Positions 17,949 through 48,293 of a stretch of DNA of 64,000 nt are shown here, piece after piece; the stretch's first letter is position 1; each line of letters opens with the position of its first letter. A program made the translations under genes and the position numbers. The notes beneath the pieces were generated by a model, which searched no databases, was not told the origin of the DNA, and was given only the letters and a program-made list of their open reading frames with translations. Origin of the DNA: Nitrospira japonica (lineage in GTDB: Bacteria > Nitrospirota > Thermodesulfovibrionia > Thermodesulfovibrionales > SM23-35); assembly GCA_020725385.1 (NCBI GenBank), contig DYFC01000054.1, positions 138 to 64,137 on the forward strand, written 5' to 3'.

Positions 17949-20900
17949 ATGAAATTACTCCACTATTACCGTAAACCAGTTTTAAATACTTCAGGGAAAA
18001 ATTCATTGCTGTCTTCTTTAAAGGCAAAGGGTTTTTTAAATATACAGGATATTGAGACAGAGTATTGTTTTAATATTGAAATTTCTGAAAGACTGACAGA
18101 AGATGAGACTTTAAAATTAAAATGGCTCCTTTCAGAAACATTTGAACCTGATAATTTCAACGACAAAAGTTTTCTTGAAAAAGGCAAGGATAGTTCCTTT
18201 ATTATTGAGGTTGGTCCGCGTATGAATTTTACAACAGCATGGTCAACAAATGCAGTATCAATATGCCATTCATGCGGACTCAATAAAATAAAAAGAATTG
18301 AACGTTCAAGAAGATACAAACTTATATCAGATAAAAGAAATCATTCTAAAGATAATTCCGGGTCTTCTTTCATTCAAACTTTCCTGAATTTAGTTCACGA
18401 TAGAATGACAGAATGTCAGTATTTAGAGCCTCTCGAAACCTTTGAAACCGGTCTAAAACCTGAAAAAGTTTTCATTGTACCGCTTATTGAAGAAGGGAAA
18501 GATGCTCTAAGAAAAATAAATATTGATATGGGACTCGGACTTGATGAGTGGGATATAGATTATTACTACAATCTATTTGTTAAAGATATGGGGAGGAATC
18601 CTACTAATGTTGAATGTTTTGATCTCGGTCAGTCAAACAGCGAACATTCACGCCATTGGTTTTTTAAAGGAAAATTAATTATTGATGGACAGGAAATGCC
18701 TCATACATTGATGGAAATAATCAAAGAGCCTTTGGTTAAAAATCCATCAAATAGTGTGATAGCATTTAAAGATAACTCAAGCGCAATCAAGGGCTATTCT
18801 GTTTTTACTATTATTCCGTCAAATCCCGAAAAGCCATCAAGTCTGAAAAAAATAGAGCTTAAATACCATCCAATATTTACAGCAGAGACTCATAACTTCC
18901 CAACAGGAGTCGCACCATTTCCAGGAGCTGAAACAGGAACCGGAGGCAGAATTAGAGATGTACATGCTACAGGAAGGGGAAGCCTTGTCATCGCCGGCAC
19001 TGCAGCTTACTGTGTTGGTAATCTTCTAATTCCAGGCTACAATATGCCATGGGAAGACCCTTCTTTTAATTATCCTCCAAATCTTGCATCTCCTTTACAG
19101 ATAGAAATAGAAGCGAGCAATGGTGCTTCTGACTATGGAAATAAATTCGGAGAGCCAATAATTCAGGGCTTTACAAGATCATTTGGATTGAGAATGTCTG
19201 ATGGAGAAAGAAGAGAATGGATAAAACCAATTATGTTTACCGGTGGGGTTGGACAGATTGATGAAAGACATTGCGAGAAAGGTCATCCTGAAAAAGGCAT
19301 GTTTGTCATAAAAATAGGAGGACCTGCTTATAGAATAGGAATTGGCGGTGGAGCAGCTTCAAGTATGATTCAGGGTGAGAATATTGCAGAACTCGATTTT
19401 AGCGCTGTACAACGCGGGGATGCTGAAATGGAACAGAAAGTTAACCGTGTAATAAGAGCTTGTGTAGAAATGGGTGACAATAACCCGATAATAAGCATTC
19501 ATGATCAGGGTGCAGGCGGAAATTGCAATGTTGTTAAAGAAATTATTTATCCTGAAGGCGCAAAAATTAACATAAGGGAAATACACCTTGGAGATAATAC
19601 ATTGTCGGTTCTTGAAATCTGGGGAGCTGAATATCAGGAGCAGGATGCTTTACTATTAAGAAAAGAAGATTTGAATCTTTTTACAGAAATATGTTCAAGA
19701 GAAAAAGTTCCCTGTGCTGTTATCGGTGAAATTACAGGAGATGGTTTTATAGTGCTTTATGATGAGCTCGATGGAAGTACTCCTGTAAATCTTGAACTCT
19801 CCAAAATACTCGGTGACATGCCTCAAAAAACTTTTAAAACAGAACGCACTGCCAGAAATAATAAACCACTTGAATTTTCAGAAAGCCTAACAATAAGAGA
19901 AGCTCTCGATAGGGTATTGAGACTTGTTTCAGTTGGTTCAAAAAGATTTCTCACAAACAAGGTTGATCGCTCTGTAACAGGACTTATCGCAAGGCAGCAA
20001 TGTGTAGGACCTTTGCAGTTAACTTTATCGGATGTTGCTGTTGTTAGCCAAAGTCATTTTTCCAAGACAGGAATAGCAATATCAATCGGAGAACAGCCTA
20101 TAAAAGGATTGATAAATCCTGCTTCTATGGCAAGAATGTGTGTTGCTGAAGCACTTACAAATATAGTATGGGCAAAAATAAGTTCGCTTCAGGATATTAA
20201 ATGTTCGGGGAACTGGATGTGGGCAGCAAAACTTCAAGGAGAAGGAGCAAATATATACGATGCTGCTCTGGCATTGAAAGATATTTTATGCGAGCTTGGT
20301 ATAGCTATAGACGGTGGTAAAGACAGTCTTTCAATGGCTGCAAAAGTAATAAATAATGATGGAAATACTGAAATTGTAAAATCTCCGGGGACACTCGTTA
20401 TCTCAGCTTATGCAACCTGTCCTGACATTTCAAAAGTCATTACACCGGATATTAAGAGACCTGGATTAAGTAAGCTTATCTTTATAGATGTTGCCGGAGG
20501 CAAGTGCAGGCTTGGAGGCTCGGCATTAGCCCAGTGTTATAAACAAATAGGGGATGAATGTCCTGATGTTAATGACACTGAAGTATTAGAGAATGCATTC
20601 AATGCTATACAGAAAATGATCGATAGGGATTTAATTCTTTCAGGCCATGACAGAAGTGATGGTGGATTGATTGTTACATTGCTTGAGATGGCTTTTGGTG
20701 GAAATTGCGGAATAAAAATAAAAATTCAAGATTCAAAATTCAAAACTCAAGATGCGAGATACAAGATGCAAGAGAGAGGGAAAACCGGGACTTATAGCTT
20801 CTCAAATAATGATTTATTATCAGTTTTATTTTCTGAAGAAATAGGAATGGTTATTGAATATATGCCAGAGAACGAAAGTGAAATAGTTTCAATCTTAAAT

Positions 20901-21959
20901 TCAAAGAATATACCTTATCAGATAATTGGTGAAACTATTATTGATAAAAATATATCAATATCAATTAACAATCAGATTGTACTAAATGAAGATATGAGGG
21001 TTCTCAGAGATATATGGGAAGACACAAGTTATCAACTTGATAGATTGCAGGCAAATCCTGAATGTGTTGAAATCGAGAAAAAAGTTATTTTTGATAGAGA
21101 AGGGCTAAAATATAACCTTTCATTTGTTCCAGAAGAAACACCTGATATTAGCCTGATAAAAAGCATTAAACCAAAGGTTGCTATATTAAGGGAAGAAGGA
21201 AGTAATGGTGACAGAGAAATGACATCTGCTTTCTTCACAGCCGGTTTTGATGTCTGGGATATTACTATGACAGATTTGCTTGAAGAAAGAATTAGTCTTA
21301 ATGAATTCAGGGGAGTTGTTTTTGTTGGAGGCTTCAGCTATGCAGATGTTCTTGATTCTGCTAAAGGCTGGGCCGGAACAATAAGGTTCAACCAGAAACT
21401 TTATGAGCAATTTGTAGATTTCTATGAAAGAAAAGACACCTTTAGTCTTGGTGTATGCAATGGATGTCAGTTAATGGCTTTACTTGGATGGATACCATGG
21501 AGAGGTATTTCAGACACAATACAACCGAGATTTATACGGAATAAATCCGGCAGATTCGAGTCAAGGTTTTCAACAGTCAAAATACTTAAAAGCCCTTCAA
21601 TAATGCTCAAAGGAATGGAAGGCTCTGTTCTTGGAATATGGATTGCACATGGAGAAGGAAGACTTTATTTTCCTGATGAAGAAATGTTAAAGGAAGTTAT
21701 ACAACAAAATCTTGCTCCTCTAAGATATGTTGATGACAAAGGTGAAGAAACAGAAATATATCCTTTTAATCCAAATGGTTCACCTTATGGAATAACTGCT
21801 TTATGTTCACCGGATGGAAGACACCTTGCTATGATGCCCCATCCTGAGAGAGTTTTTCTCAAATGGCAATGGCCGTATATGCCTGAAGAATGGAAAAACT
21901 TAAAAGCATCACCATGGCTCAAAATGTTCCAGAATGCATTAAAGTGGTGCTCGGCCTGA
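17949..21959 (+). CDS. purL: Phosphoribosylformylglycinamidine synthase, large single-chain type
   Basis: NSEHSRH, ETHNFP, GGKDSLSM, GVCNGCQ, MPHPER; 1336 aa. Confidence 0.97.
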   Translation: MKLLHYYRKPVLNTSGKNSLLSSLKAKGFLNIQDIETEYCFNIEISERLTEDETLKLKWLLSETFEPDNFNDKSFLEKGKDSSFIIEVGPRMNFTTAWSTNAVSICHSCGLNKIKRIERSRRYKLISDKRNHSKDNSGSSFIQTFLNLVHDRMTECQYLEPLETFETGLKPEKVFIVPLIEEGKDALRKINIDMGLGLDEWDIDYYYNLFVKDMGRNPTNVECFDLGQSNSEHSRHWFFKGKLIIDGQEMPHTLMEIIKEPLVKNPSNSVIAFKDNSSAIKGYSVFTIIPSNPEKPSSLKKIELKYHPIFTAETHNFPTGVAPFPGAETGTGGRIRDVHATGRGSLVIAGTAAYCVGNLLIPGYNMPWEDPSFNYPPNLASPLQIEIEASNGASDYGNKFGEPIIQGFTRSFGLRMSDGERREWIKPIMFTGGVGQIDERHCEKGHPEKGMFVIKIGGPAYRIGIGGGAASSMIQGENIAELDFSAVQRGDAEMEQKVNRVIRACVEMGDNNPIISIHDQGAGGNCNVVKEIIYPEGAKINIREIHLGDNTLSVLEIWGAEYQEQDALLLRKEDLNLFTEICSREKVPCAVIGEITGDGFIVLYDELDGSTPVNLELSKILGDMPQKTFKTERTARNNKPLEFSESLTIREALDRVLRLVSVGSKRFLTNKVDRSVTGLIARQQCVGPLQLTLSDVAVVSQSHFSKTGIAISIGEQPIKGLINPASMARMCVAEALTNIVWAKISSLQDIKCSGNWMWAAKLQGEGANIYDAALALKDILCELGIAIDGGKDSLSMAAKVINNDGNTEIVKSPGTLVISAYATCPDISKVITPDIKRPGLSKLIFIDVAGGKCRLGGSALAQCYKQIGDECPDVNDTEVLENAFNAIQKMIDRDLILSGHDRSDGGLIVTLLEMAFGGNCGIKIKIQDSKFKTQDARYKMQERGKTGTYSFSNNDLLSVLFSEEIGMVIEYMPENESEIVSILNSKNIPYQIIGETIIDKNISISINNQIVLNEDMRVLRDIWEDTSYQLDRLQANPECVEIEKKVIFDREGLKYNLSFVPEETPDISLIKSIKPKVAILREEGSNGDREMTSAFFTAGFDVWDITMTDLLEERISLNEFRGVVFVGGFSYADVLDSAKGWAGTIRFNQKLYEQFVDFYERKDTFSLGVCNGCQLMALLGWIPWRGISDTIQPRFIRNKSGRFESRFSTVKILKSPSIMLKGMEGSVLGIWIAHGEGRLYFPDEEMLKEVIQQNLAPLRYVDDKGEETEIYPFNPNGSPYGITALCSPDGRHLAMMPHPERVFLKWQWPYMPEEWKNLKASPWLKMFQNALKWCSA
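20723..20771 (+). repeat. In-frame heptamer tandem array inside purL
   Basis: aattcaa gattcaa aattcaa aactcaa gatgcga gatacaa gatgcaa, encoding IQDSKFKTQDARYKMQ. Confidence 0.85.
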
Positions 21960-22041
21960 AAGCTTATTTGAAGTAGCGAAAAAATAAAAAATTTTTGTAA
22001 TATCTGAATTACGCGGGTTAAATAGGTTATAATCTTCTGTC

Positions 22042-24681: not shown

Positions 24682-24754
24682 AATTTATTATTAATTGAAA
24701 AATTTTTTAAATTTAAAATTAAGGAATACTTAACTTAAATAAGGGGGATTTATA

Positions 24755-27700
24755 ATGCCAAGAAGAGAAGACATTGAAAAAGTACTTATAATAGGTTCGG
24801 GACCTATTGTTATCGGTCAGGCATGTGAGTTTGATTATTCAGGAACTCAAGCCTGTAAAGCGCTAAGAGGTCTTGGATATAAAATAGTTTTGGTTAATTC
24901 CAATCCAGCGACAATAATGACTGATCCGGGAATGGCTGATATAACTTATCTTGAACCATTAACAGTTGATTCACTTGAAAAAATTATTGCAAAAGAAAGA
25001 CCCGATGCAGTCCTTCCCAATTTAGGCGGGCAGACAGGTTTAAACCTGACAGCGGATCTTTATAAAAGGGGGATTTTGCAAAAATATGGAGTTAAGATTA
25101 TAGGAGTTGAGGCAGATGCGATTGAAAGGGGCGAGGATCGAATCGCATTTAAGGAAACCATGAACAAACTCGGTATTCCCATGCCTGAAAGTGAACCTGC
25201 TTTTAGTGTTGAAGAGGCAGAAGAAATTGCATCAAAATTGGGGTATCCTGTTGTTGTGCGTCCTGCCTATACATTGGGAGGTACAGGAGGCGGTCTTGTT
25301 TACAATATCGAAGAACTTAGAACAGTTGCAAGCAGGGGCATCTCTGCAAGTCTTATAGGACAGATTCTTGTTGAAGAATCAGTCCTTGGTTGGGAAGAGC
25401 TTGAACTTGAAGTTGTACGCGATTCAAAGGATCAATGTATTACTGTATGTTTCATCGAAAATGTCGATGCAATGGGAGTGCATACAGGAGATTCTTATTG
25501 CACTGCTCCTATGCTTACGATTGATCCGGAACTTCAAAAGAAGTTACAGAAATATTCTTATGATATTGTCAAAGCAATTAAAGTCATCGGCGGAACCAAT
25601 ATACAATTTGCATATGATCCTAAAACCGGCAGGGTAGTTGTAATTGAAATAAATCCACGAACATCACGTTCTTCTGCACTTGCTTCAAAAGCAACAGGGT
25701 TTCCTATAGCCAGAGTTTCCTCTCAACTTGCTGGTGGCCTTACTCTTGATGAAATTCCATATTGGCGGGCAGGCACGCTCGATAAATATGAACCATGGGG
25801 AGACTATGTTGTTGTTAAATTTTCAAGATGGGCTTTTGAGAAATTTGAAGGTGTTGAAGATAAACTCGGCACCCAAATGAGAGCAGTTGGAGAAGTAATG
25901 AGTATAGGCAAAAATTATAAAGAAGCTTTTCAAAAGTCAATACGTTCTCTTGAAATAGGAAGATATGGACTTGGTTTTGCAAAAGATTTCAATTCAAAGG
26001 CTCTTCCCGAACTTCTTGATATGCTGTCATTTCCATCAAGCGAAAGACAATTTATTATGTACGAAGCATTGCGTAAAGGAGCTGATATTAATGTGCTGTA
26101 TCAGAAGACCCATATTAAGCCCTGGTTCATTAAACAGATGAAAGAACTTGTTGAGCTTGAAGAAAAAATACTTACTTATAAGGGTAAAAAACTTCCTGAT
26201 GAAATTCTAATACAAGCTAAAAAAGATGGTTTTGCCGATAAATATCTTGCAATACTTATAGGTTCATCTGAGAAGGAAATCCGTGAACAGAGAAAATCTC
26301 TCGGACTCGTTCAGGCATGGGAACCTGTTCCGGTAAGCGGGGTAGAAAATGCAGCTTACTATTTTTCAACTTATAATGCAGAAAATAAGGTTCAGGTTAG
26401 CAACAGAAAAAAGATTATGGTAATTGGAGGAGGGCCAAACCGTATCGGTCAGGGAATTGAGTTTGATTATTGTTGTGTACACGCAGCATTTGCTCTAAAG
26501 GAAAAAGGTTATGAAACTATCATGGTAAATTGCAATCCCGAGACTGTTTCAACTGATTATGATACTTCTGATAAGTTATATTTTGAACCCATCACAGTTG
26601 AGGATGTGCTCTCAATATATGAAAATGAAAAACCTGAAGGTGTAATAATTCAGTTTGGTGGACAGACACCTTTAAATATAGCAAGAGAACTTCATGAAGC
26701 AGGGGTGAAAATTCTCGGGACATCAACAGAAACAATTGATTTTGCCGAGGATAGAGATTTATTCAGAAAGATGATGAAAAAACTCGGTATCCCGATGCCT
26801 GAATCAGGAATGGCTAAGACTCTTGAAGAAGCTTTAAAAATAGCGGAAAAGATAGGCTATCCACTTATGGTTAGACCTTCTTTTGTTCTTGGTGGTCGCG
26901 GGATGGAAGTTGTTCACGATGAAGAAATGTTAAGGAGATATGTTACTGCAGCAGTTGAGGTTACTCCTGATAGACCTATTCTGATTGATAAATTTCTTGA
27001 GAATGCTATAGAAACAGAAGCCGATGCTATATCAGACGGGACAGATGCTTTTGTGCCCGCGGTAATGGAGCATATAGAACTTGCGGGCATACATTCAGGT
27101 GATTCAGCATGTGTGATACCTCCAATAAGCATTCCTGCAAAACATCTTGAAACAATATATGAATATACAAGAAAGATTGCTGTTGAATTGAATGTTATTG
27201 GACTAATGAATATTCAGTATGCTATTTCAGATGATATGCTTTATGTCCTGGAAGCTAATCCCCGTGCATCAAGAACAGTACCATTAGTCTCGAAAGTCTG
27301 TAATATACCAATGATAAAGATCGCCATAGAAATCATGCTCGGGAAAAAATTGAAAGATATGAATTTAAGGCAAGGGTTAATAAGGCATTTCGGTGTTAAA
27401 GAAGCAGTATTTCCATTTAATATGTTCCCGGAGGTTGACCCTATTCTTGGACCCGAAATGCGCTCAACAGGAGAAGTGCTCGGCATAGCAGATTCTTTTG
27501 GAATGGCATATTATAAAGCTCTTGAAGCTGCAAACCAGCGTCTTCCTCTGGAAGGAAATGTATTAATTACAGTTTCGGATGAGGATAAAAAAGCATCTTT
27601 ACAGGTTGCAAAACGTTTTGCAAATCTCGGATTTAAAATATATGCAACCCGCGGTACTTATAAATTTCTGAAAGATAACGGGATAAAGGCCGAGCTCATA

Positions 27701-27955
27701 AATAAAATGCATGAAGGAAGACCGAACATTGTTGATGCAATTAAAAATAAGGAAATACACTTAATAATTAATACTCCAAGCGGCAAACTTGGCAAGCATG
27801 ATGATTCATATATACGCAAATCAGCGATTAAATATAAAGTGCCTTACATAACTACTCTTGCTGCAGGCATTGCTGCAAGCCGTGGAATTGAAGCTTATAA
27901 AAACAGAAAAAGTGAGGTTAAATCTTTACAGGAATATCACGCCGATATAATTTAA
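24755..27955 (+). CDS. carB: Carbamoyl-phosphate synthase large subunit, stand-alone paralog 1
   Basis: [10 protein letters not shown], duplicated ATP-grasp domains, MGS domain. Confidence 0.96.
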   Translation: MPRREDIEKVLIIGSGPIVIGQACEFDYSGTQACKALRGLGYKIVLVNSNPATIMTDPGMADITYLEPLTVDSLEKIIAKERPDAVLPNLGGQTGLNLTADLYKRGILQKYGVKIIGVEADAIERGEDRIAFKETMNKLGIPMPESEPAFSVEEAEEIASKLGYPVVVRPAYTLGGTGGGLVYNIEELRTVASRGISASLIGQILVEESVLGWEELELEVVRDSKDQCITVCFIENVDAMGVHTGDSYCTAPMLTIDPELQKKLQKYSYDIVKAIKVIGGTNIQFAYDPKTGRVVVIEINPRTSRSSALASKATGFPIARVSSQLAGGLTLDEIPYWRAGTLDKYEPWGDYVVVKFSRWAFEKFEGVEDKLGTQMRAVGEVMSIGKNYKEAFQKSIRSLEIGRYGLGFAKDFNSKALPELLDMLSFPSSERQFIMYEALRKGADINVLYQKTHIKPWFIKQMKELVELEEKILTYKGKKLPDEILIQAKKDGFADKYLAILIGSSEKEIREQRKSLGLVQAWEPVPVSGVENAAYYFSTYNAENKVQVSNRKKIMVIGGGPNRIGQGIEFDYCCVHAAFALKEKGYETIMVNCNPETVSTDYDTSDKLYFEPITVEDVLSIYENEKPEGVIIQFGGQTPLNIARELHEAGVKILGTSTETIDFAEDRDLFRKMMKKLGIPMPESGMAKTLEEALKIAEKIGYPLMVRPSFVLGGRGMEVVHDEEMLRRYVTAAVEVTPDRPILIDKFLENAIETEADAISDGTDAFVPAVMEHIELAGIHSGDSACVIPPISIPAKHLETIYEYTRKIAVELNVIGLMNIQYAISDDMLYVLEANPRASRTVPLVSKVCNIPMIKIAIEIMLGKKLKDMNLRQGLIRHFGVKEAVFPFNMFPEVDPILGPEMRSTGEVLGIADSFGMAYYKALEAANQRLPLEGNVLITVSDEDKKASLQVAKRFANLGFKIYATRGTYKFLKDNGIKAELINKMHEGRPNIVDAIKNKEIHLIINTPSGKLGKHDDSYIRKSAIKYKVPYITTLAAGIAASRGIEAYKNRKSEVKSLQEYHADII

Positions 27956-27995
27956 CCCTAATTGAAATAATGCATTTTTAAGTTAGCTGGATATA

Positions 27996-29705: not shown

Positions 29706-29755
29706 ATTGATATAAAAATATTTCCATCTTTTCAGAATTTAAAACTGTTTTCGGG

Positions 29756-30505: not shown

Positions 30506-30529
30506 ACTATTTTTATGGTATATTATTTC

Positions 30530-31252: not shown

Positions 31253-31255
31253 AAT

Positions 31256-32122: not shown

Positions 32123-32164
32123 ACCCGAAAAATATTGTTGTAATAATGCAGATATTGCGAAATC

Positions 32165-33637: not shown

Positions 33638-33709
33638 AACTTAGTCCTTTATCTGTTTAACTTGTCGTTACTCTTTACTTTTTTGCTTTTTGTCTTATTG
33701 GTTTATTAA

Positions 33710-35158: not shown

Positions 35159-35170
35159 ACAATATCTTCC

Positions 35171-36502: not shown

Positions 36503-36580
36503 GGAAATTTATAATACAATAAACGTGTAAAATATTTGTACAATATAAATAATCACATCCTAAAATAAACAGAGGATTTT

Positions 36581-37618: not shown

Positions 37619-37628
37619 GATATTTATT

Positions 37629-38186: not shown

Positions 38187-38290
38187 ATTTGAATCTTCTT
38201 ATGGTACAGCCTCCGATCCATGGGATGGTAAGCTGACAGTTTTTTTATGTTTCACATTGTTTGAGTTATGTATTCATTATTTTTATAATA

Positions 38291-41200
38291 TTATTTCCTG
38301 TGATATTCCTGTAGAGATTTAATTTTCATCTTTTTCTTTTTTAATATTTCTATGGCTTTTAAAGCGGCTTTTGCTCCTGTTATGGTAGTTGTAAAAGGAA
38401 TTCTGTACTGTAAAGCGCTTCTTCTTATTGAGAAGGAATCTCTCTGTGCCTGAGTTCCTGAAACAGTATTAATCACAAAATTTATCTCTCTGTTTTTAAT
38501 TTTATCAACAATATGCGGCCTGCCTTCTGTAACTTTATTTATAACCTCTACACTAATACCATGTTCATTAAGATATTTTGCTGTTCCCCTTGTTGCTATC
38601 ACAGAAAAGCCAAGTTCTATTAATTTCTTTACAATCGAGACCGATGAAGGTTTATCTTTATCTTTCAAGCTTATGAATATCTTTCCCGATAATGGAATAC
38701 TGTTACCACATGAAATCTGGGATTTACCATAAGCAAGGCCGAATTCTCTATCAATGCCCATAACCTCGCCTGTTGACTTCATTTCAGGACCTAAAATTGT
38801 ATCTACTCCCGTGAATCTGTCAAAAGGAAAGACCGCTTCTTTTACAGCAATATGTTTAATTTTCTTCTCTTTTGTAAATCCCAGTTCTTTCAAGCTTTTG
38901 CCTGTCATTACTTTTGCCGCTAATTTTGCGAGAGGAATTCCTGTAGCTTTACTAACAAAAGGTATTGTCCTTGATGCTCTTGGATTAACTTCAAGTATAT
39001 ATATTTCATCTCCTTTAACAGCAAATTGTATATTCATGAGCCCGATAACATTGAGTTCTTTTGCCAGTGCTTTGGTTTGCCGCTTTATTTCCTTTATTTT
39101 ATCTTTAGGCAGAGAATACGGAGGCAATGAACAGGCAGAATCGCCTGAATGTATTCCGGCTTCTTCAATATGCTCCATCACGCCTCCAATAATAACCTGA
39201 CTTCCGTCAGAGATAGCATCAACATCTATTTCAATTGCATCTTCAAGATATTTATCAATAAGCACAGGATGCTCAGGTGATGCTTTCACCGCCCGTCTCA
39301 TATACTCTATTAAAGACTTTTCATCATAAACTATCTCCATAGCCCTGCCACCGAGTACATATGATGGCCTGACCATTACAGGATAGCCTATTTTTGAAGC
39401 TGCACTAAGAGCTTCTTCTATGGACATGGCTGTATCGCTTTCAGCTTGTTTGAGCTTTAGTTTATCAAGAAGTTCTTTGAATCTTTTTCTATCTTCTGCC
39501 CTATCAATTGAATCAGGTGATGTGCCAAGAATTTTAACCCCTTCTTTTTCCAGTGGCACAGCAAGTTTCAAAGGTGTCTGACCGCCAAATTGAACAATGA
39601 TACCTTCGGGTTTTTCAATATGAATAATGTTTAAAACATCTTCAAGAGTAAGAGGCTCAAAATAAAGTCTATCAGCAGTATCGTAGTCAGTGCTAACAGT
39701 TTCCGGATTGCAGTTTACCATTATAGTCTCATACCCCAATTCTTTTAGTGCGAAAACAGCGTGAACACAGCAATAATCAAATTCAATTCCCTGTCCAATT
39801 CTGTTAGGACCTGAACCAAGTATGATTACTTTTTGCCTGCTTGAGGGATTTGCTTCACATTCAGTAGTGTCAGAGTGTCCACATGTCAGAGTATCAGAGT
39901 CTTTGACACTTTGATACTTTGACTCTTTGATACTATTAAAAGGAGTTTCATAGGTTGAATACATATACGGTGTATATGCTTCAAACTCTGCCCCGCAGGT
40001 ATCAACCATTTTGTAAACAGCATGTATGTTATATTGTTGTCTTAAATGTCTTATATCGGATTCTTTTACATCAATAAGTTGAGCGATTCTTCCATCGGAA
40101 AATCCATATTGTTTTGCTTTCTTTAACTTTTCGATACAATTAGGATTTTGAATATCGAATTTTGAATCTTGAATTCTTTTTTCAGTTTCAATAATCTGCT
40201 TCATATTTTCAAGAAACCACGGGTCTATCCATGTAAGTTCATATATTTCACGGATGCTCATTCCTTCCCTTATAGCCTGAGCTATGTACCAGATACGTTC
40301 TGAATTAGGTGTCTTGAGCTTTGATTTAATTTCTGACAGTTCTGCTTTAATAGTCTCAAATCCATAACTGCTGATTTCAAGGCTTCTTATAGCCTTTTGA
40401 AGTGATTCTTTAAAAGTCCTGCCGATTGACATTACTTCACCTACGGATTTCATTTGAGTGTTGAGGGTAGGGTCTGCTTCAGGAAATTTTTCAAAAGCAA
40501 ATCTCGGGATTTTTGTAACAACGTAATCTATTGTTGGTTCAAAAGATGCAGGAGTTTCTCTTGTTATATCATTTGGAATTTCCTCGAGGGTAAGTCCTAC
40601 GGCAAGTTTTGCAGCAATTTTTGCTATTGGAAATCCTGTAGCCTTTGACGCAAGGGCAGAACTTCTTGAGACTCGTGGATTCATCTCTATAACAACCATC
40701 CTGCCATTGTTTTGATTCACTGCAAATTGTATATTAGAGCCGCCTGTATCAACACCAATTTCACGTATTATTGCTATAGATGCATCACGCATCCGCTGGT
40801 ATTCTTTATCTGTTAAGGTTTGTGCAGGAGCAACAGTTATTGAATCACCTGTATGCACACCCATTGGATCAAAATTTTCTATAGAGCAGATTATTACTAC
40901 ATTATCCATGCTATCGCGCATTACTTCAAGCTCATATTCCTTCCAGCCTAATACAGATTCTTCAACAAGAACCTGATTGACAGGACTGAGTTTCAACCCT
41001 CTCTCGAGCATTTCTTTATATTCTTCCATGTTGTAAGCTATTCCGCCGCCTGTTCCACCAAGTGTAAAAGATGGCCTTAGAATAACAGGAAATCCAGTAT
41101 ATTCAACTGCTTCGAGTCCTTCTTTAATAGAGCCTACGTGCGAGCTTTTAGGAACTTCGAGTCCTATTTTTTTCGTAGCCTCTTTAAAAAGTTCTCTATC

Positions 41201-41581
41201 CTCTGCTTTTTTAATTGCATGAATTTTCGCACCGATTAATTCAACCTTGTATTTTTCGAGTATGCCTTTTTCAGAGAGTTCAACCGCAAGATTTAACGCA
41301 GTCTGCCCGCCCATGGTTGGCAATAATGCATCAGGTCTCTCTTTTTTTATAATCATCTCAAGAACATCTGAAGTTAGCGGTTCAATATAAGTTGAATCAG
41401 CCATTTCAGGATCAGTCATGATTGTTGCGGGATTAGAGTTTACAAGAACAACTTGATACCCTTCCTCACGCAAAGCCTTGCATGCTTGAGTACCGGAATA
41501 GTCGAATTCACAAGCCTGGCCGATTATTATCGGACCGGAGCCGATTAACAAAATCTTTTTAATATCGTTTCTTTTTGGCAT
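38291..41581 (-). CDS. carB: Carbamoyl-phosphate synthase large subunit, pyr-operon paralog 2
   Basis: Canonical CarB motifs ([18 protein letters not shown]); co-oriented with pyrRBC-carA. Confidence 0.97.
39863..39934 (-). repeat. In-frame octamer arrays in inverted arrangement inside carB
   Basis: Coding strand agtatcaa agagtcaa agtatcaa agtgtcaa | agactctg atactctg acatgtgg acactctg acactact; absent from the other carB. Confidence 0.85.
40141..40175 (-). repeat. In-frame heptamer array inside carB
   Basis: Coding strand aattcaa gattcaa aattcga tattcaa aatccta ([11 protein letters not shown]). Confidence 0.8.
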
Positions 41582-41596
41582 AAAAAATATAAACCT

Positions 41597-41758
41597 CTAA
41601 ATATCAGATAAATCTGAAAGTGAAAGATATGATAATGTTTCTAACTCAGTGATAAAAGAAATATAAAAATCACCCTCGGGTAAGTTTTTTGCAGTAATTT
41701 TTTTACCCATTAAATATAACAATATATTAGTATCTAAAAGATATTTATCTCCATTCAC
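41597..41758 (-). pseudogene. Truncated PIN/VapC toxin
   Basis: GTG-start MNGDKYLLDTNILLY...ISFITELETLSY then stop at 53 aa; overlaps the antitoxin end. Confidence 0.75.
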
Positions 41759-41960
41759 TCCGTATTTTCCTTTGAAAATCCATTGGGTCTTCTTTGATAT
41801 TTATAATTCCTAAGTACTTGATTAGTTTTCCTTTTGTCATTTTTTTTTGATAACTTTTTAAAATCTGTTCAATTTCCTTCCATTCTTTATATTTGATAAT
41901 TACTTCTGAGGGATTATTATTTTCATCCATAACAATCTTTTTATGTATATTTTTCAACAT
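41745..41960 (-). CDS. Putative antitoxin of PIN toxin
   Basis: 71 aa; ends EDPMDFQRKIRSEW, a tail typical of small proteins preceding PIN toxins. Confidence 0.65.
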   Translation of the reverse strand: MLKNIHKKIVMDENNNPSEVIIKYKEWKEIEQILKSYQKKMTKGKLIKYLGIINIKEDPMDFQRKIRSEWR

Positions 41961-42013
41961 ATATATTTGTCTCCGTTGTAAATGTTTATTACTTTATTAG
42001 CCAGTAAAATTAC

Positions 42014-42538
42014 CTATTTAAAATACACTATCTTGCTTCCTGCAAGGTGGAGTGGTATTTCTGATTTTTCTGTCCATTGTCCTTTTTTGAAATATCTATC
42101 GTCAACACTTGCTGATAGGACTTTGCCGAAAAATGCATAACATTCGCCTGCATCAACTGCCTTCCATAGTCTGCATTCTATATAGCCTATACAATTTTTT
42201 ATCAAGGGAGCTTTCACCTTTTTGCCGTTAATTATTTCAAGCTTTGCTTTTGTGAATTTATCTGTATCCCTGCCCGATGATTTTCCACATATCCATATAG
42301 CAGGCAGAAGTTTCTTAGTTGGTATATTAATAACAAACTCCTTCGTTTGCCTGATTAATTTTGTCGTATGATGTTCCTTTGAAACACAAACAATTACAAT
42401 TGGTGGTTCATCACTTACAGGAGTCGCCCATGCACATGTCATCACATTCGGCTTCCCATTTTTATCAATACTTGTCAATAAAAAAGTCAATTTCGGATGC
42501 AAAAGATGATATATCTCTGATTTAATTTCTTTTAGCAT
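42014..42538 (-). CDS. Flavin reductase family protein
   Basis: PNVMTCAW, EFVINIP, CG..SGRD.DKF, IECR. Confidence 0.9.
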   Translation of the reverse strand: MLKEIKSEIYHLLHPKLTFLLTSIDKNGKPNVMTCAWATPVSDEPPIVIVCVSKEHHTTKLIRQTKEFVINIPTKKLLPAIWICGKSSGRDTDKFTKAKLEIINGKKVKAPLIKNCIGYIECRLWKAVDAGECYAFFGKVLSASVDDRYFKKGQWTEKSEIPLHLAGSKIVYFK

Positions 42539-42539
42539 A

Positions 42540-43607
42540 TTATTCTCCTATCAATAAAACTTCTTCCAACTCATTTATGCTCAATACATATTTGTAGTCT
42601 TTTCGCTTTATCGCATGCACACTATGTTTATATTTTTTAAGAATATCTAAAAGTTCATCTATTGATGGAATTCCATCAGAACGATATGAAACAACAAGAA
42701 TACTGTCTCTAAACTTGCAAAATAAGTTATCAAAAGCAGAGTGTATTTTATTCTTATCCATCCAGACAGTAGGAATAGATTTAAGTTTTTTATGTTTTGA
42801 ATTATAGTCAATCGTGTTTGCCCAGTTATCATAATTAACAAGTCCCTCAAGAAAATGATAAAACTCAAGATAATCTACTCCCACCCCTTTTTTAGAAATA
42901 TAGGGCGTATCAATATATACAAGCTCATAATTTCCCTGAATATCAAAAACATCCATATTTAATGCAGTATTTTTTCTACCATTAGAAAATACAGCGTCAT
43001 TTGCTTCGCTAATAAACTTTTTAAAATGAACCTCAAACGGTGTATCCCAGGTAGCTTTATTACCAAAATCTCTTTTCACATCAGCAAATCTTAAATAAAG
43101 ATTTTTTCTGTGAAATAAATTAAAAGGTCTTTTTACAAGACATGCCTGAAATAATGCAAAATATGCTAATGCTTGTTTATATTTATCTTCAAGCAATCTA
43201 ATATTGGTCGAAATCATATCAATCCATGTATTTTCTTCATCTGTATAATAGATGTCTTTAAAAGTATCAGCTATAAATGTTGGATAGACTACTCCGTTAT
43301 GCTTTGTAAGAAGAAAAGTCATATCATCATCTGAAAGTGTAATTTCATCGTTTTCAATTAATGCAAGTCCTACATAATAGTTAAATTTCAGGATGTCATT
43401 GTATGTAACCTGCTTACCATTTTCTTTAAGTTTATATGCTACGCATCCTGTGCCTCCAAAAGCATCAAGAGCGGTACGAAAATCTAAATTCTTAATAGCC
43501 TGCCAGATCCAATCAACAATTTTCAGCTTGCTTCCCTGAAAGCGGGTTGAGGGAAAAGCAGGGGCTGGTTTAATTAAGGTCATCTGTTCTTTAGTAACAC
43601 ATTTCAT
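42540..43607 (-). CDS. DNA adenine methyltransferase (D12/Dam-like class)
   Basis: RFQGSK, DAFGGTG, ND, YIDTPY, VSY (motif I before motif IV). Confidence 0.88.
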   Translation of the reverse strand: MKCVTKEQMTLIKPAPAFPSTRFQGSKLKIVDWIWQAIKNLDFRTALDAFGGTGCVAYKLKENGKQVTYNDILKFNYYVGLALIENDEITLSDDDMTFLLTKHNGVVYPTFIADTFKDIYYTDEENTWIDMISTNIRLLEDKYKQALAYFALFQACLVKRPFNLFHRKNLYLRFADVKRDFGNKATWDTPFEVHFKKFISEANDAVFSNGRKNTALNMDVFDIQGNYELVYIDTPYISKKGVGVDYLEFYHFLEGLVNYDNWANTIDYNSKHKKLKSIPTVWMDKNKIHSAFDNLFCKFRDSILVVSYRSDGIPSIDELLDILKKYKHSVHAIKRKDYKYVLSINELEEVLLIGE

Positions 43608-43622
43608 TTCGTAATCTATTTT

Positions 43623-44678
43623 TTATCCAACTTTTCTGCCTTTTAGTTTATCAATCCAATCTTTATCAATCTTTAAGGTTAATGACCTCAAAATACCTTT
43701 AATAAATAAAGAAACGGATAATTTGCCAAAATTTCGTTCTTTTTCACTGAGAACATCTTCACCTTTTAGGATTACTTCTTCAAGTCCTGCTGGCACATCA
43801 AAATAAAATCGCCTTCTTTGTTCATCAGCAGAAAATTCAAGCCATATCGGAATATCTTGTGGTAATGGATTGCCATCATAATATATTTTACAGAGTTCTT
43901 CGTCAGAATTGGCAAACAATTCATCAGGGAATAAATCTTTGCTAAGAAAATGTAATAACACACCTGTTGATGTCATTCCGAAAAAACTTGTTTTAACTGG
44001 TAAGAGTGATTCATGAAGATTACTAAGTAAATTTCTTCTATTATTCATATCATATTTTTCCAAAAAATTATTAATGTTTGATGAATAATCTTCTAACAAA
44101 TTTTCTAAATCTCTCATAAAAGTTGAATGTTTTCCAAAACTGATAGTTTTGCGCCACGAAAGACCATCGCTTTCTAATAATTCGATATCTTTCTTTATTT
44201 CTGCCATTTGCTGATTGGTACGATAAGAAATTGTCTTTATTCCATGGGCAAAAGCTAAATTAACTGCTTGTTCTTGAAACCCATTTGCTGAGAAAAATAC
44301 TCCTAAATCAGTGTATCTATTTTGGGAGTCAATAGTATGAGAACCATCAATAAAATAGTTTTCAGAAATGTCTTTTATTACACCGATAAAAGATCGTATT
44401 TTATCTTTATTAACTTCATGGTTGTAATATTTTGCTTCTACAAGAAGTCTTAAAGGATATGTAAAGGGAATCCTCCTAGAAAAAATACAAGGTGTATCTA
44501 TTTGATGCCATGTTCCTCTACCTTTAATCTCAATTTTATATTCTCCATTGATTCTAATTCTCTCACTTTCATTGGCTGACAGAAGTGACCATCCATTCTT
44601 CTTAAGTAGATGACGGACAACGACTTCGAATATATACCCTCTTAATTGTCCTCTTTTGAACCCTTTTTCTCCTCTCAT
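43623..44678 (-). CDS. PD-(D/E)xK nuclease, Mrr-like N-terminal domain
   Basis: RGYIFE, HQID, VEAKYY, FSANGFQ..A...A..HGI. Confidence 0.72.
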   Translation of the reverse strand: MRGEKGFKRGQLRGYIFEVVVRHLLKKNGWSLLSANESERIRINGEYKIEIKGRGTWHQIDTPCIFSRRIPFTYPLRLLVEAKYYNHEVNKDKIRSFIGVIKDISENYFIDGSHTIDSQNRYTDLGVFFSANGFQEQAVNLAFAHGIKTISYRTNQQMAEIKKDIELLESDGLSWRKTISFGKHSTFMRDLENLLEDYSSNINNFLEKYDMNNRRNLLSNLHESLLPVKTSFFGMTSTGVLLHFLSKDLFPDELFANSDEELCKIYYDGNPLPQDIPIWLEFSADEQRRRFYFDVPAGLEEVILKGEDVLSEKERNFGKLSVSLFIKGILRSLTLKIDKDWIDKLKGRKVG

Positions 44679-44727
44679 ACTCAGTTCTTTATTGTCCTAT
44701 TTAAACTTTCGATAATAAAACTAAGTC

Positions 44728-45546
44728 TCATTTCTTCAACTTCTTATATTCCCTATACTCCTTTAAATTCTTATACGGAGCGCCTTTGAGGTCAACTGCC
44801 TTTGCCATATCTTTTGTCATATAATACATCCAGTAGTCATTAAAAATATCTTCCCCAAGTTCGGCGAATGGCCCCTTTCCATAAATTAATTCATCAATTT
44901 TTGTAACAGAACCTATATTTTTTGTATTGCCACTCCCCGGTCGGTCAAGGGCAATACGATATTTCTCCTGAATAAAAAATGTAAAGTCTTTAATAACAGA
45001 TGTAATGTTTTGCAGGTCATCCAACTTATATATTTTTCTCTCATCTAAATCTTTATCTGTTCTGGAATAGATTACACCAAGGACAAAATGCCCGACATAT
45101 TCGTCATAGGGAAAAGTGATATTCTTTTTACTTTTCCTGTCTCGGAAATATCCTGTAAATGCTCCTAAGGTCATACCATTTACCTCTTTCCCGTTCTTTC
45201 GATAGGTGCTTTTTAGGTCAACTGCATATTTATTATCTTTGTCATCTATAAATGTAATATCGGGGTAAAAATTCTGCTCCTTGCAAAGAACCATTTTGTA
45301 ATTATTATCTTGAGCAAATTGACAAATTTTAGGAAAAAGAAGAAGCTCCATAACCTTTGAAACAACTTTGGTGTCAAAAGAAATTGTATAAATATTTTTT
45401 GCAATATCAATAAATCCTTTAACTACCCAGTCTCCTTCTCCAGTAGAAACTGCTGCATTAAACAATTCAACATACTTGAGAAGCTGGTTTCTGAACTTCT
45501 CTTTTAGTTTTTGTTTTTCTTCTAAATTCTCCATATTTTCCTTCAA
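44728..45546 (-). CDS. Type II restriction endonuclease, EcoRV family
   Basis: DTKVVSK.MEL, QNFYPD, AVDLKSTY, TLGAFTGYFR, GSGNTKNIGS, F.DYW. Confidence 0.85.
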   Translation of the reverse strand: MKENMENLEEKQKLKEKFRNQLLKYVELFNAAVSTGEGDWVVKGFIDIAKNIYTISFDTKVVSKVMELLLFPKICQFAQDNNYKMVLCKEQNFYPDITFIDDKDNKYAVDLKSTYRKNGKEVNGMTLGAFTGYFRDRKSKKNITFPYDEYVGHFVLGVIYSRTDKDLDERKIYKLDDLQNITSVIKDFTFFIQEKYRIALDRPGSGNTKNIGSVTKIDELIYGKGPFAELGEDIFNDYWMYYMTKDMAKAVDLKGAPYKNLKEYREYKKLKK

Positions 45547-46363
45547 TTCGGTCTTTTATAAGCTGGCAATAGTTTGAATCTATCTCAATCATGATACATT
45601 TTCTATTGAGCCCTTGCGCAACATATCCTGTTGTACCAGAGCCAGCAAAGGGATCAAGAATCAAATCGCATTCATTGCTTCCAGCCAGTATCACATATTC
45701 CAAAACAATCGTTTGTTTTGTAGCAGGGTGGCGAAAAGGATTTTTCTCGGCCCAGTATTCCCAGATATTTTTCATCTGAATCCCACCATTTAATTCCTTC
45801 ATAACTTTGTAATTAAATTTTGTCCTTCCTTTTGTATTCTTTTTTGCCCATAACATAGTCTCGGTAACAGCCCTGAAGCATGAACCTTTAAAATTAGGTG
45901 GAGCATTTCTTTTATGAAGAATTATATCATTAAGTATCTTGAAACCTAAGTCTTGAAGAACAACATTTATTACCCCTATACTGTGGTATGTCCCTGTAAC
46001 CCAGATTGTAGCTCCTTCTTTAAGAATACGCTGGGCTTCTTTTAGCCAGCTATAATGAAATTCAAACTGATAATTAAGGGATTTAGAATAAGCCCATTGA
46101 GCCTTCTGAGTATCGAATGAATCAGCATGACCATCGTTGCGCTTTATAACCAGTCCTGATTGATTTCCAAAGTAGGGAGGATCGGCAAAAATAAGATCTA
46201 TATACTTATCAGGGACCCTTTTTAATAAATTTAATGCATCACCGTTGTAAAGTGCTATCTTTCTTTTGTCATCATAAAAGTAAGGTTTTATGGCCTCATA
46301 CTTACCATAAGAAGTTTTTTCCTCTGCACAAATAAAACCCGTAGTTTCGAACTGTTCGATCAT
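45467..46363 (-). CDS. N6A/N4C DNA methyltransferase (beta class)
   Basis: IFADPPY ... HPATK ... LDPFAGSGTT (motif IV before motif I). Confidence 0.9.
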   Translation of the reverse strand: MIEQFETTGFICAEEKTSYGKYEAIKPYFYDDKRKIALYNGDALNLLKRVPDKYIDLIFADPPYFGNQSGLVIKRNDGHADSFDTQKAQWAYSKSLNYQFEFHYSWLKEAQRILKEGATIWVTGTYHSIGVINVVLQDLGFKILNDIILHKRNAPPNFKGSCFRAVTETMLWAKKNTKGRTKFNYKVMKELNGGIQMKNIWEYWAEKNPFRHPATKQTIVLEYVILAGSNECDLILDPFAGSGTTGYVAQGLNRKCIMIEIDSNYCQLIKDRIEGKYGEFRRKTKTKREVQKPASQVC

Positions 46364-46411
46364 TGTGTTTCCTTCATCATCTATCTAATTTCCACCCTTG
46401 ATTTATTTATC

Positions 46412-46585
46412 CTATATCTTTCCACTTCTAAACAACTCCTGGATTTCTATTGTTTTTTTAGGTAAAGATTTTCTTAATTTGTTGCCATAATAAAGCCACT
46501 TGAGTTTTCTTTCTATAGGCCATTTACGGTATTCATCCAACTGCTCTTCACTCACAAAATATGTAAATCCTCCCTTTTTCTCCAT
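46412..46585 (-). CDS. Small protein (57 aa), partner of nucleotidyltransferase; not in ORF track
   Basis: MEKKGGFTYFVSEEQLDEYRKWPIERKLKWL...FRSGKI; TAATG overlap with upstream gene. Confidence 0.7.
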   Translation of the reverse strand: MEKKGGFTYFVSEEQLDEYRKWPIERKLKWLYYGNKLRKSLPKKTIEIQELFRSGKI

Positions 46586-47076
46586 TATCTCTCCAGTATC
46601 TTTTTCAGGTATTCTACATCTGAAATATCCTGTTTGCGTCCTGAATGTTGTTTAAGTGTTATGAGATCATGTATTGAGATAGTTGGAATTCCTATCCCCT
46701 CAATCTCGAATATAACGGCTCTGCTCTTTAAGTCACTATAAGGAATCGGAGAATGAAAAACAATATCGATTTCTCCAATTGGTAATTTATCATTGTAAAA
46801 GCTTAATGCTCTCATTTCTTTTTCAAGCGTCCACTTTTCTCTTATTTCTTTATCAGCAATTTCTATTGGATTAACCGGAACTTTCGGACGATAGCCTAAA
46901 TCATTTAGTTTATTAATTAATCTATTTACATTTTCGCTTTCAAGCAATATCATAAGATCAATATCATAAGTCATTCTTGGAATACCGTGAAAATTTACTG
47001 CTAAACCTCCAACAACAAGATAATCTATTTTGAGTTCATTAAATGTTTTGAATATATTTTTAAAATCCATTTCCAT
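46585..47076 (-). CDS. Nucleotidyltransferase (DUF6036/AbiEii-like)
   Basis: YLVVGGLAV..HG.PR.T.DID ... LITLK...GRKQD..DV..L. Confidence 0.82.
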   Translation of the reverse strand: MEMDFKNIFKTFNELKIDYLVVGGLAVNFHGIPRMTYDIDLMILLESENVNRLINKLNDLGYRPKVPVNPIEIADKEIREKWTLEKEMRALSFYNDKLPIGEIDIVFHSPIPYSDLKSRAVIFEIEGIGIPTISIHDLITLKQHSGRKQDISDVEYLKKILER

Positions 47077-48293
47077 TATTTATAACTCTCGATCATTTCT
47101 TTAAATCTTTTAAAAATATGCGCTGAATCATTTGGGCCCGGACCAGCTTCAGGATGATGCTGAACCGAGAAAATTGGCAGCTCAACGTGCTGCATACCTT
47201 CTTCAGTCCCGTCATAAAGATTCTTATGGGTAAGCCTTACCTGACCTTTAAGGCTATTTATATCAACACAATAGTTATGATTTTGAGAAGTAATCTCAAC
47301 CCTCCCGGTTGTTAAATCTTTTACAGGATGGTTTCCTCCATGATGTCCGAACTTAAGCTTATAAGTTGTTCCACCCATTGAAAGTCCAAGAATCTGATGG
47401 CCGAGACATATACCAAAAATAGGTTTTTTCCCCATCAATCTTTTTGTGTTCTCAATGCCATATGTAACAGTTTGGGGGTCACCTGGCCCGTTACTAAGAA
47501 CTATTCCATCGGGATTCATGTCAAGAACTTCTTCAGCAGGTGTTTGTGCTGGTATAACCGTAACTTCAAAACCTGCTTCAACAAGATTCCGAAGAATATT
47601 GAATTTTACTCCAAAATCATAGACAGCAATCCTAATCCCCCTCAGCCCCCCTTTACCAAAGGGGGGTAAGGGGGGATTTTTCTGACTTTCTAAATTCTGC
47701 TTTCTGACTTCAGTTTGAGTAGGTTCCCATTTCCAGCAACCTTTGTTCCATTCATATTTTTCTTTTGTTGTTACATCCTTCACAAGATCAAAAGCAGAAA
47801 TTCCAGGATGTGCTCTGACTTTTTCCAAAAGACTTACAGGATTCAGGTCAACAGTTGAAATAATACCCATCTGTGCTCCGTAGTTTCTTAAATGTCTTGT
47901 CAAAGCACGCGTGTCAATGCCTTCTATTCCAACTATCCCATATTCTTTTAAATAATCTCCTAATGAGTTTGTTAATTTTGAATCTTGAATTTTGAATTTT
48001 GAATTTTCAGCCCTCCAGTTGCTCGGAAAATCAATATATTCTTTTACAACAAATCCTTCCACTTTTGGACCACCAAACGACTCTAAGTCTTCATCATTTA
48101 TTCCATAATTTCCAATTTGTGAATATGTCATTACAACAATTTGTCCTTTATAAGAAGGATCTGTAAGTATTTCTTGATAACCTGTCATTGATGTATTGAA
48201 AACAACCTCTCCTATGGTTTCTCCTTCAGCACCAAAATTTTCCCCTTCAAATACAACTCCATCAGAAAGCACAAGAAATGCCTTACCACTCAT
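47076..48293 (-). CDS. carA: Carbamoyl-phosphate synthase small subunit (with repeat-derived insertions)
   Basis: GEVVFNT.MTGYQE, SNGPGDP, GICLGHQ, HPEA; real start MSGKAFLVL at 48293. Confidence 0.96.
   Translation of the reverse strand: MSGKAFLVLSDGVVFEGENFGAEGETIGEVVFNTSMTGYQEILTDPSYKGQIVVMTYSQIGNYGINDEDLESFGGPKVEGFVVKEYIDFPSNWRAENSKFKIQDSKLTNSLGDYLKEYGIVGIEGIDTRALTRHLRNYGAQMGIISTVDLNPVSLLEKVRAHPGISAFDLVKDVTTKEKYEWNKGCWKWEPTQTEVRKQNLESQKNPPLPPFGKGGLRGIRIAVYDFGVKFNILRNLVEAGFEVTVIPAQTPAEEVLDMNPDGIVLSNGPGDPQTVTYGIENTKRLMGKKPIFGICLGHQILGLSMGGTTYKLKFGHHGGNHPVKDLTTGRVEITSQNHNYCVDINSLKGQVRLTHKNLYDGTEEGMQHVELPIFSVQHHPEAGPGPNDSAHIFKRFKEMIESYK
47634..47711 (-). repeat. GC-rich palindrome plus GAAGTCA-type heptamers in frame inside carA
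   Basis: AATCCCCCtcagCCCCCCTTT-acc-AAAGGGGGGtaagGGGGGATT (47634-47678) encoding NPPLPPFGKGGLRGI; upstream in the gene gaagtca gaaagca gaattta gaaagtca. Confidence 0.85.
47971..48005 (-). repeat. In-frame heptamer array inside carA
   Basis: Coding strand aattcaa aattcaa aattcaa gattcaa aattaac (NSKFKIQDSKLT). Confidence 0.85.

Follow-up and report, generated by a model that had tools for sequence, protein, structure and literature searches.

Three genes for conserved enzymes, purL, carB and carA, carry in-frame tandem arrays of a seven-nucleotide unit in the stretch of DNA analysed here (the window, 64,000 nucleotides, G000:C53:138-64137). The source genome, G000, is a metagenome-assembled genome (MAG) of 2.46 Mb in 71 contigs with 34.7% G+C, and its closest public CarA loci lie in MAGs labelled Nitrospirota/Nitrospirae and Thermodesulfovibrionales. 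A first-pass annotation, made from the letters of the window, had reported the three arrays, and the sequence itself, Tandem Repeats Finder (TRF) and the open frames confirm them. The host genes, identified from their open reading frames (ORFs), and the arrays within them are as follows.

17949..21959, + strand: purL, large-type formylglycinamidine ribonucleotide (FGAM) synthase, array host (ORF, translation, match to solved PurL chains)
20723..20771, + strand: purL heptamer array, AATTCAA GATTCAA AATTCAA AACTCAA and then degenerate units, coding for KIQDSKFKTQDARYKMQ
38291..41581, - strand: carB, carbamoyl-phosphate synthase large subunit, array host (ORF, match to solved CarB chain)
40141..40175, - strand: carB heptamer array, on the coding strand AATTCAA GATTCAA AATTCGA TATTCAA
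47076..48377, - strand: carA, carbamoyl-phosphate synthase small subunit, array host (ORF, match to solved CarA chain), the true start of which is likely the ATG at 48287 (MSGKAFLV)
47970..48005, - strand: carA 36-nt heptamer insert, three units of AATTCAA, then GATTCAA and AATTAAC, coding for NSKFKIQDSKLT

TRF reports a period-7 array at each site (purL, 20724-20773, 7.1 copies, 79% matches; carB, 40145-40175, 4.4 copies, 75% matches; carA, 47974-48007, 4.9 copies, 92% matches), and all three share the core AATTCAAGATTCAAAATT, read from the + strand for purL and from the - strand for carB and carA. As annotated earlier, each site encodes IQDSK, twice with F after it, and one of the array peptides reads NSKFKIQDSKL. 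Three heptamers run through all three reading frames, and the reverse orientation (TTGAATT/TTGAATC) meets a TGA within 21 nt, so that genes can retain arrays in the sense orientation alone. This argument, already made in the first-pass annotation, holds: the reverse strand gives TGA after three units, and every in-gene array of G000 has the sole stop-free orientation. Period-7 nucleotide identity amounts to 0.87 in purL, 0.74 in carB and 0.91 in carA, values that synonymous-codon shuffles with the peptide kept matched in 6, 28 and 3 of 2000 cases, respectively. The periodicity thus exceeds what the peptide would lead one to expect, and a peptide conserved among orthologs without nucleotide periodicity, which had been named as contrary evidence, was not what we found.

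We aligned PurL, CarB and CarA with relatives of the same genus, family and order, and mapped the loops by sequence against solved chains of the three enzymes. The purL array sits in the loop after GNCGIxIxI, which varies in length and sequence in nearly every relative; it is about 23 residues longer than in chain 9n9w_A, between chain residues 934 and 940, and in the closest relative, G005, it is exactly 7 amino acids (21 nt) shorter. For carB, the array falls within an oligomerisation-domain loop, variable across all 28 aligned relatives. The carA insert adds 12 residues after NWRxE, between positions equivalent to R93 and N94 of E. coli CarA, which has none. All three arrays thus lie in hypervariable loops, with extra residues in CarA and PurL; carB is only about 3 residues longer there than E. 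coli CarB, the array taking the place of an existing loop rather than forming a clean insertion.

A dispersed family with genome-specific units

We scanned G000 for runs of at least three RAYTCAA units with at most one mismatch per unit and found 22 arrays, as compared to 0, 1, 3, 6, 1, 2, 5, 3, 0 and 2 (mean 2.3) in ten genomes simulated with an order-5 Markov chain. Three of them (C2:60156, C28:51332 and C64:1255) looked by eye like degenerate chance matches and were left out, so that 19 credible arrays remain, whose coding status was judged from stop-free frames and Pfam matches. Eight are internal to Pfam-annotated proteins, namely PurL, CarB, CarA, HemC (porphobilinogen deaminase), AroC (chorismate synthase), QueC, a histidine kinase (in its HATPase_c domain) and a UvrD-like helicase. 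Another three form C-terminal tails (MurG, Cas6 and a 23S-rRNA-IVP protein), and the remaining eight are intergenic or directly upstream of genes. A TRF census of G000 yielded 101 merged period-7 arrays with two large families: an AAAGAGC-type family of about 30 arrays, almost all intergenic, and the AAAATTC/AAGATTC/AAAACTC family, with about 17. The unit of the latter, AARDYTC, is RAYTCAA in another register; four tandem copies occur in 25 of 81 sampled genomes and in 18 of 51 genera of Thermodesulfovibrionales, and the dominant spellings differ. Another genome of the order has a pair of AAGGTTC arrays at contig ends (G081:C26:5-137 and C33:7-139), each with about 19 perfect units and far longer than any in G000.

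The site in carA allowed the family to be followed from genome to genome. Among 106 full-length CarA loci, which reduce to 101 distinct sequences after removal of 5 duplicates, an insert is found in 14; its length is exactly 36 nt (12 amino acids) in 13 of these and 24 nt in the other. All 14 bearers share the same flanks (CTGAAAAG on the 5' side and GTTATAAA-TC-TTAGG-GAT on the 3' side), indicating that the inserts are homologous and not independent insertions of unrelated repeats. Within an array the units are nearly uniform, and they are specific to the genome: AAAATTC in G000, and AAGATTC, AAAGTTC, ACGGTTC, AAAGTCA, GGAGTCA or GGAGTGC elsewhere, with degenerate forms of the insert in three bearers. 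For five of the six variants tested, the CarA unit is dispersed in its own genome and rare or missing in others. G014 has 32 loci of the family, of which 12 are purely AAAGTTC, both CarA arrays included, and 2 consist purely of G000 spellings; the 12 strict loci of G000 include a single AAAGTTC locus, with unit tallies of 26 for AAAACTC, 25 for AAAATTC, 20 for AAGATTC and 3 for AAAGTTC. G000, G014 and G033 lack ACGGTTC, which G031 carries at 4 loci and G032 at about 11; AAGTCAA was counted at 5 G033 loci and 2 G014 loci and is missing from G000, G031 and G034; and GGAGTCA, with 4 loci in G034 and 2 each in G035 and G014, is missing from G000 and G010. Two further enzymes repeat the pattern. 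MurD arrays occupy a shared site between the N-terminal and middle domains in G011 and G014 (L209, L229), and arrays in a phosphoglucomutase/phosphomannomutase (PGM/PMM)-type mutase (phosphohexomutase) occupy a shared site at the start of domain III in G017 and G014 (L208, L217); in both cases the units are typical of the genome, and G000 has ordinary loops at both positions.

These data agree with the earlier view that one dispersed family, rather than three independent slippages, lies behind the arrays of the window: the family occupies 19 loci in G000, and its genome-specific variants are shared by CarA and other loci. Under independent local slippage, the likeness of the units would have arisen by chance or through selection that converged, in an AT-rich genome, on hydrophilic coding units free of stops. 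Heptamers are indeed reported as the favoured unit of long simple sequence repeats (SSRs) in bacteria, according to the available parts of two studies (PMC4692102, PMC4679880); only stop-free units persist in genes; and G000 has many other heptamer families among its 101 merged arrays. We nevertheless consider this explanation very improbable, given one unit family at 19 loci, intergenic ones included, Markov controls that reach about a tenth of the observed array count, unrelated variants such as ACGGTTC that are found in certain genomes only, with 4 to about 11 loci in each, and a CarA insert whose 36 nt are not a multiple of 21.

To follow the descent of the insert, we built a CarA tree without the insert columns. 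The insert requires 10 state changes on this tree, and a single clade of the 14 bearers was rejected (lnL difference 201, p-AU 0.004 in the approximately unbiased (AU) test). The array is missing from the closest relatives of G000, G005 and G013. Along the gene, G013 is nearest to G000 over most of carA (81-92% identity per window) and drops to 69% beside the insert, where insert bearers reach 81-88% identity with G000 over a background of about 70-78%. A second carA loop repeats this mosaic pattern, with G016 at 85%. The windowed identities therefore indicate that loop segments have been swapped between lineages by homologous recombination.

We examined the stability of the arrays with contigs from four metagenome runs (X1, X3, X7 and X8) of four studies, over positions 38200-48400. 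The only indels listed lie at 41582 and 43872. Contigs from two other studies (X3 record 16 and X7 record 24) bridge the carA array with 0 differences, and a strain diverged by about 5% (X8 record 26) spans both carB repeat sites with 1 gap, located elsewhere. Many unrelated contigs break off at the borders of the carA array, with loose ends at 47972-47974 and 48005-48007, indicating that the same repeat occurs at other loci in those samples. Both the fragmented 71-contig assembly and the many partial contigs drawn by the repeats might raise the suspicion of an assembly or binning artefact, with repeats misjoined into genes. The bridging contigs and the diverged strain speak against it, as do the open frames and 13 further CarA sequences with the same insert, taken from MAGs that were deposited independently, and we regard the probability of such an artefact as negligible. 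The idea that a system is writing new peptide into enzyme loops fares differently in its two parts. In conserved enzymes, translation of the arrays yields loop peptide that is either additional or a replacement; active writing at present is not supported, the CarA array being an old allele common to 13 other sequences and the four metagenomes showing no length variants.

PF05635 cassettes, CRISPR loci and further repeats

Eight genes of G000 match PF05635 (23S_rRNA_IVP, a bAvd-like four-helix bundle), and for seven of them a tandem array (period 6-8, or 14/16) was located no more than 100 bp away, as compared to 281 of 3000 random segments. In these cassettes the two flanking arrays are inverted, the one on the 5' side being the reverse complement of the one on the 3' side; the inverted-flank score exceeds the random 95th percentile in 5 of 8. 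Each cassette has its own unit: AATTCAA (beside cas6), AAAGAGC, CAGTTTA, CGGAAGT, GTGAAAG or GTCTGTT. The inverted layout recurs at high-scoring PF05635 genes of G011, G010, G001 and G005, each with its own unit.

The first-pass annotation had named four-helix-bundle genes as a candidate mobiliser, and such genes are indeed flanked by arrays. A dedicated mobiliser or rewriting machinery, for which the PF05635 cassette is the candidate, would make the in-gene arrays its footprints or its ORF-less derivatives, as miniature inverted-repeat transposable elements (MITEs) are of transposons. Beyond the array flanks in G000 and their counterparts in relatives, it can draw on the cassette next to cas6, which carries the exact AATTCAA family, and on another flanked by the AAAGAGC family; on relatives' enzyme loops that hold an array followed by its inverted copy; and on the genome-wide shared variant, which is the expected product of a master copy. 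Several findings run counter to it. G014 has 32 array loci and no PF05635 match at 96% completeness; the units of cassettes and of CarA are unlike each other in G011 and G001; and none of the eight PF05635 matches of G000 lies on C53, the contig of the window. No array of the window encloses a PF05635 ORF in the manner of an intervening-sequence cassette, a feature present at other loci of G000. The marks of a transposon or MITE are likewise missing: around the 22 arrays we found no target-site duplication and no shared terminal sequence beyond the array, the flanks holding only A-rich partial units, and the 19 credible arrays have no common flank. No nuclease or recombinase partner turned up, although no systematic search was made for one. 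Overall, we judge this explanation unlikely. The array flanks of PF05635 genes do not make these genes the mobiliser of in-gene arrays, and no mobiliser is tied to those arrays.

Two mechanisms that such a machinery might use were tried and rejected. The sole PF00078 reverse transcriptase of G000 adjoins cas1-cas2 in a type III CRISPR (clustered regularly interspaced short palindromic repeats) locus, and rewriting of the kind carried out by diversity-generating retroelements (DGRs) was rejected on this ground, with no further search for a template repeat. As a long RNA stem, a PF05635 cassette pairs its arrays in the minimum-energy fold, and the energy of the whole molecule is worse than that of shuffles (z +1.45).

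In a variant of the mobiliser explanation, to which we give an equally low probability, a genome-wide, sequence-directed process would rewrite short heptamer arrays at any location, those within genes for essential enzymes included, with the PF05635 cassettes (two of them within CRISPR arrays, replacing spacers) as its autonomous form or template. Were this true, the spelling of an orthologous enzyme loop would change in each lineage so as to follow whichever master unit its genome currently has.

Several of the cassettes stand in settings of their own. The type III CRISPR-Cas locus at G000:C29:42000-57000 (L235, L184, L186) encodes Cas2, Cas1, a stand-alone reverse transcriptase, RAMP proteins, a Cas10-like protein and Cas6. 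Within it, a PF05635 gene with inverted arrays lies between two 37-nt CRISPR repeats, at the position of a spacer (spacing 480-558 versus 73-82), and another PF05635 gene lies directly downstream of cas6. At G000:C4:10248-10568 (L187), a PF05635 gene with octamer flanks lies between copies of a direct repeat ending in GGGATTGCGAC, and these direct repeats resemble another CRISPR-type array, placed at a contig end. Contig region G000:C45:10800-30200 (L183) is rich in AAAGAGC-type arrays of up to 150 bp, mostly intergenic; one such pair encloses a PF05635 gene, and the orthologous cassette of G010 follows the same upstream gene. Elsewhere, G000:C10:18300-23000 (L182) holds a cluster of arrays of unit types AGCATAG, AAAACGT, TGTTCTA, CGTGAAA and TTTTTAC, in which two TGTTCTA arrays in direct orientation flank a 79-residue ORF that by eye resembles a HicB-type antitoxin, near other small ORFs.

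The window contains four further repeat features:

39861..39934, - strand: carB interdomain-linker octamer arrays, GTCAAAGT-type and then ACTCTGAC-type (TRF period 8/16)
47679..47710, - strand: second, weaker heptamer array in carA (GTCAGAA-type), in the interdomain loop, coding for TEVRKQNLESQK (TRF period 7, 4.2 copies, 69% matches)
47637..47675, - strand: in-frame GC-rich palindrome in the same interdomain loop of carA as the GTCAGAA-type array, coding for NPPLPPFGKGGLRGI
56842..56865, strand not assigned: intergenic heptamer array GCTCTAC (AAAGAGC-type family), between the ORFs at 55990-56829 and 56922-57713 (TRF)

The octamer arrays add about 27 residues to the carB linker, beyond E. coli CarB at 548/550, and the linker is variable in relatives. 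The two octamer types are roughly reverse complements of each other. A hairpin was considered here and rejected: the arrays pair in the minimum-energy fold, yet z is 0.30 and 116 of 200 shuffles fold as well. The carA interdomain loop is filled with repeat-like peptides in relatives as well, and different heptamer-encoded peptides occur in these or further loops of the relatives' enzymes. Its palindrome is present in a single copy in G000 and folds better than 198 of 200 shuffles (z -2.77), and near-identical palindrome peptides (NPPLPPF-KGG) occur in CarB of G011, PurL of G015 and CarA of G008 and G016. The window also holds a second CarB-like ORF (24755-27955, + strand, 1066 residues) that shares about 44% identity with part of carB, and several relatives have a paralogue of this kind.

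Probable homogenisation of the arrays within genomes

Since the arrays use all three frames and a change of the unit alters three codons, protein-level selection cannot keep the units identical, and the responsible force must act at the level of DNA. The reading that we favour, and hold to be somewhat more probable than all others together, is that the arrays belong to one dispersed heptamer family, resembling the cyanobacterial STRR elements (short tandemly repeated repetitive DNA), which is kept alike within each genome by a DNA-level process while array-bearing segments pass between lineages. The most likely process would be ectopic gene conversion between arrays, combined with replication slippage, by which a new spelling of the unit could spread to many loci, the arrays of essential genes included; array-bearing gene segments would also move between lineages via homologous recombination. 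In essential genes only changes of 21 nt keep the frame, and contraction followed by re-expansion by three units could also homogenise an array. Copies in genes survive only where they are free of stops and where the protein tolerates filler, that is, in hypervariable surface loops, interdomain linkers and C-terminal tails, and are translated there as hydrophilic low-complexity peptide such as KFKIQDS. We infer that these peptides have no catalytic role and are neutral.

The uniformity of the units might instead reflect selection on the arrays as cis-elements, either binding sites on DNA or mRNA for a protein that recognises the repeat or sites of translational pausing, that co-evolve with their binder. 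This explanation shares the argument that units near-perfect across three frames go beyond protein-level selection. Array lengths that are identical in strains about 95% identical from other studies (records 16, 24 and 26) agree with it, as do the copies directly upstream of genes (flgI, IVP) or at 3' ends, and the available part of one report proposes a regulatory role for the intergenic TAACTGA repeats of Beggiatoaceae (PMC4679880). The CarA array, however, is present in just 14 of 101 sequences and missing in G005 and G013, the host genes have no pathway in common, and no candidate binder was identified. Selected cis-elements thus strike us as improbable, more so than a mobiliser.

Several points weigh against the favoured reading of a family homogenised within genomes and exchanged between lineages. 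G010 has a degenerate CarA array whose unit, GGAGTTC, lacks dispersed copies, the sole match having 2 mismatches, and G011 holds mixed variants, none of them dominant. The reversed-pattern control was high, with 30 matches in G014, owing to the closeness of the reversed unit to the family itself. Simple slippage would not predict the 36 nt of the CarA insert, which make up 5 units plus 1 base and recur at that length in 13 of 14 bearers. The bearer clade for the AU test was defined after the first FastTree had been seen. No indel occurs at the carA or carB arrays in the contigs of the four metagenomes, contigs being prone to drop rare variants, and no conversion event, conversion tract or length variant was directly observed. 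Arrays of 28-56 bp are near the lower length limit for RecA-type exchange. Finally, an AlphaFold2 model of CarA (54-row alignment) reached a mean predicted local distance difference test (pLDDT) score of 66.9, with residues 55-100 poor although conserved, and was unfit for placing the insert.

Comparison with known repeat systems

The closest likeness is to the STRR sequences of heterocystous cyanobacteria, which are also tandem heptamers with one unit at many loci and lineage-specific unit families, and copies of which are tolerated in the variable region of an essential gene. STRR units include CCCCAGT, TTGGTCA and CAACAGT. The present family is STRR-like in having tandem 7-nt units in at least 3 copies, an excess over many loci and lineage-specific unit families. 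It differs in its Nitrospirota host, its other units and its location in protein-coding enzymes that are read in frame, and it does not belong to the named cyanobacterial STRR1-3. STRR-like dispersed heptamers have been known for decades, and we know of no mechanism for their spread.

Rickettsia palindromic elements (RPEs), which Ogata and co-workers are said to have described in 2000, are reportedly selfish repeats that lie in frame at tolerated surface positions of conserved proteins; they reportedly consist of palindromic units of 100-150 bp and not of tandem heptamers. The heptamer arrays share with them in-frame insertion at variable surface positions of conserved proteins and, as direct repeats, lack the palindrome. 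The carA palindrome at 47637-47675 is a closer analogue, and represents a second, RPE-like type of in-frame mini-insert.

Dispersed heptamers have been described in other bacteria, and the following comparison draws on those parts of the reports that were available. TAACTGA direct repeats occur at more than 100 loci in marine Beggiatoaceae and in some Cyanobacteria and Bacteroidetes (MacGregor 2015, PMC4679880). As in our arrays, stop codons dictate the orientation within ORFs, and a minority of copies lies in ORFs, including the very end of MurG (PMC4679880). Unlike our arrays, the TAACTGA repeats are mostly intergenic, shortly upstream of start codons, and their in-ORF copies are peripheral, whereas 8 of 19 arrays of G000 are internal to conserved enzymes and the unit differs; a mobile origin is discussed in that portion of the report, with no mechanism given (PMC4679880). 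The GGGAATC/GGGGAYT repeats of Xanthomonas and Nostoc are likewise dispersed SSRs of heptamer units, favouring arrays of about four units, and 83% of them keep their position between two related species (PMC4692102). They are, however, G-rich, G-quadruplex-forming and under-represented in coding sequence, whereas ours are AT-rich and over half coding (PMC4692102). Tandem repeats of Borgs evolve fast as well and add low-complexity peptide in disordered protein regions, but arise independently and locally, in contrast to one non-triplet unit family spread over many loci (PMC9879509).

Phase-variable contingency loci, the SSRs of pathogens, have short tandem repeats within ORFs too, but our arrays showed no length polymorphism in the contigs of the four runs, in which rare variants can hide, and they sit in internal loops of housekeeping enzymes. 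In a literature search that fell short of most subscription journals and supplements, no paper turned up that deals with heptamer repeats of Thermodesulfovibrionales or with heptamer arrays around PF05635 genes, and, in the parts of that literature that were available, no report of orthologous in-gene arrays re-spelled to match each genome's family. What is new relative to known STRR-type behaviour is an orthologous in-gene site whose units match each genome's dispersed copies.

The same codon position of an essential enzyme, occupied at a fixed length by a unit that is re-spelled in each genome, amounts to a natural experiment. With it, local slippage can be told apart from a process that homogenises or re-inserts units throughout the genome, and the question becomes accessible to comparative genomics and simple recombination assays. 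PF05635, a widespread family of unknown function, is linked here to inverted arrays of short units and to CRISPR arrays. The arrays also illustrate how repeats whose unit is not a triplet can supply peptide to conserved enzymes and leave these intact.

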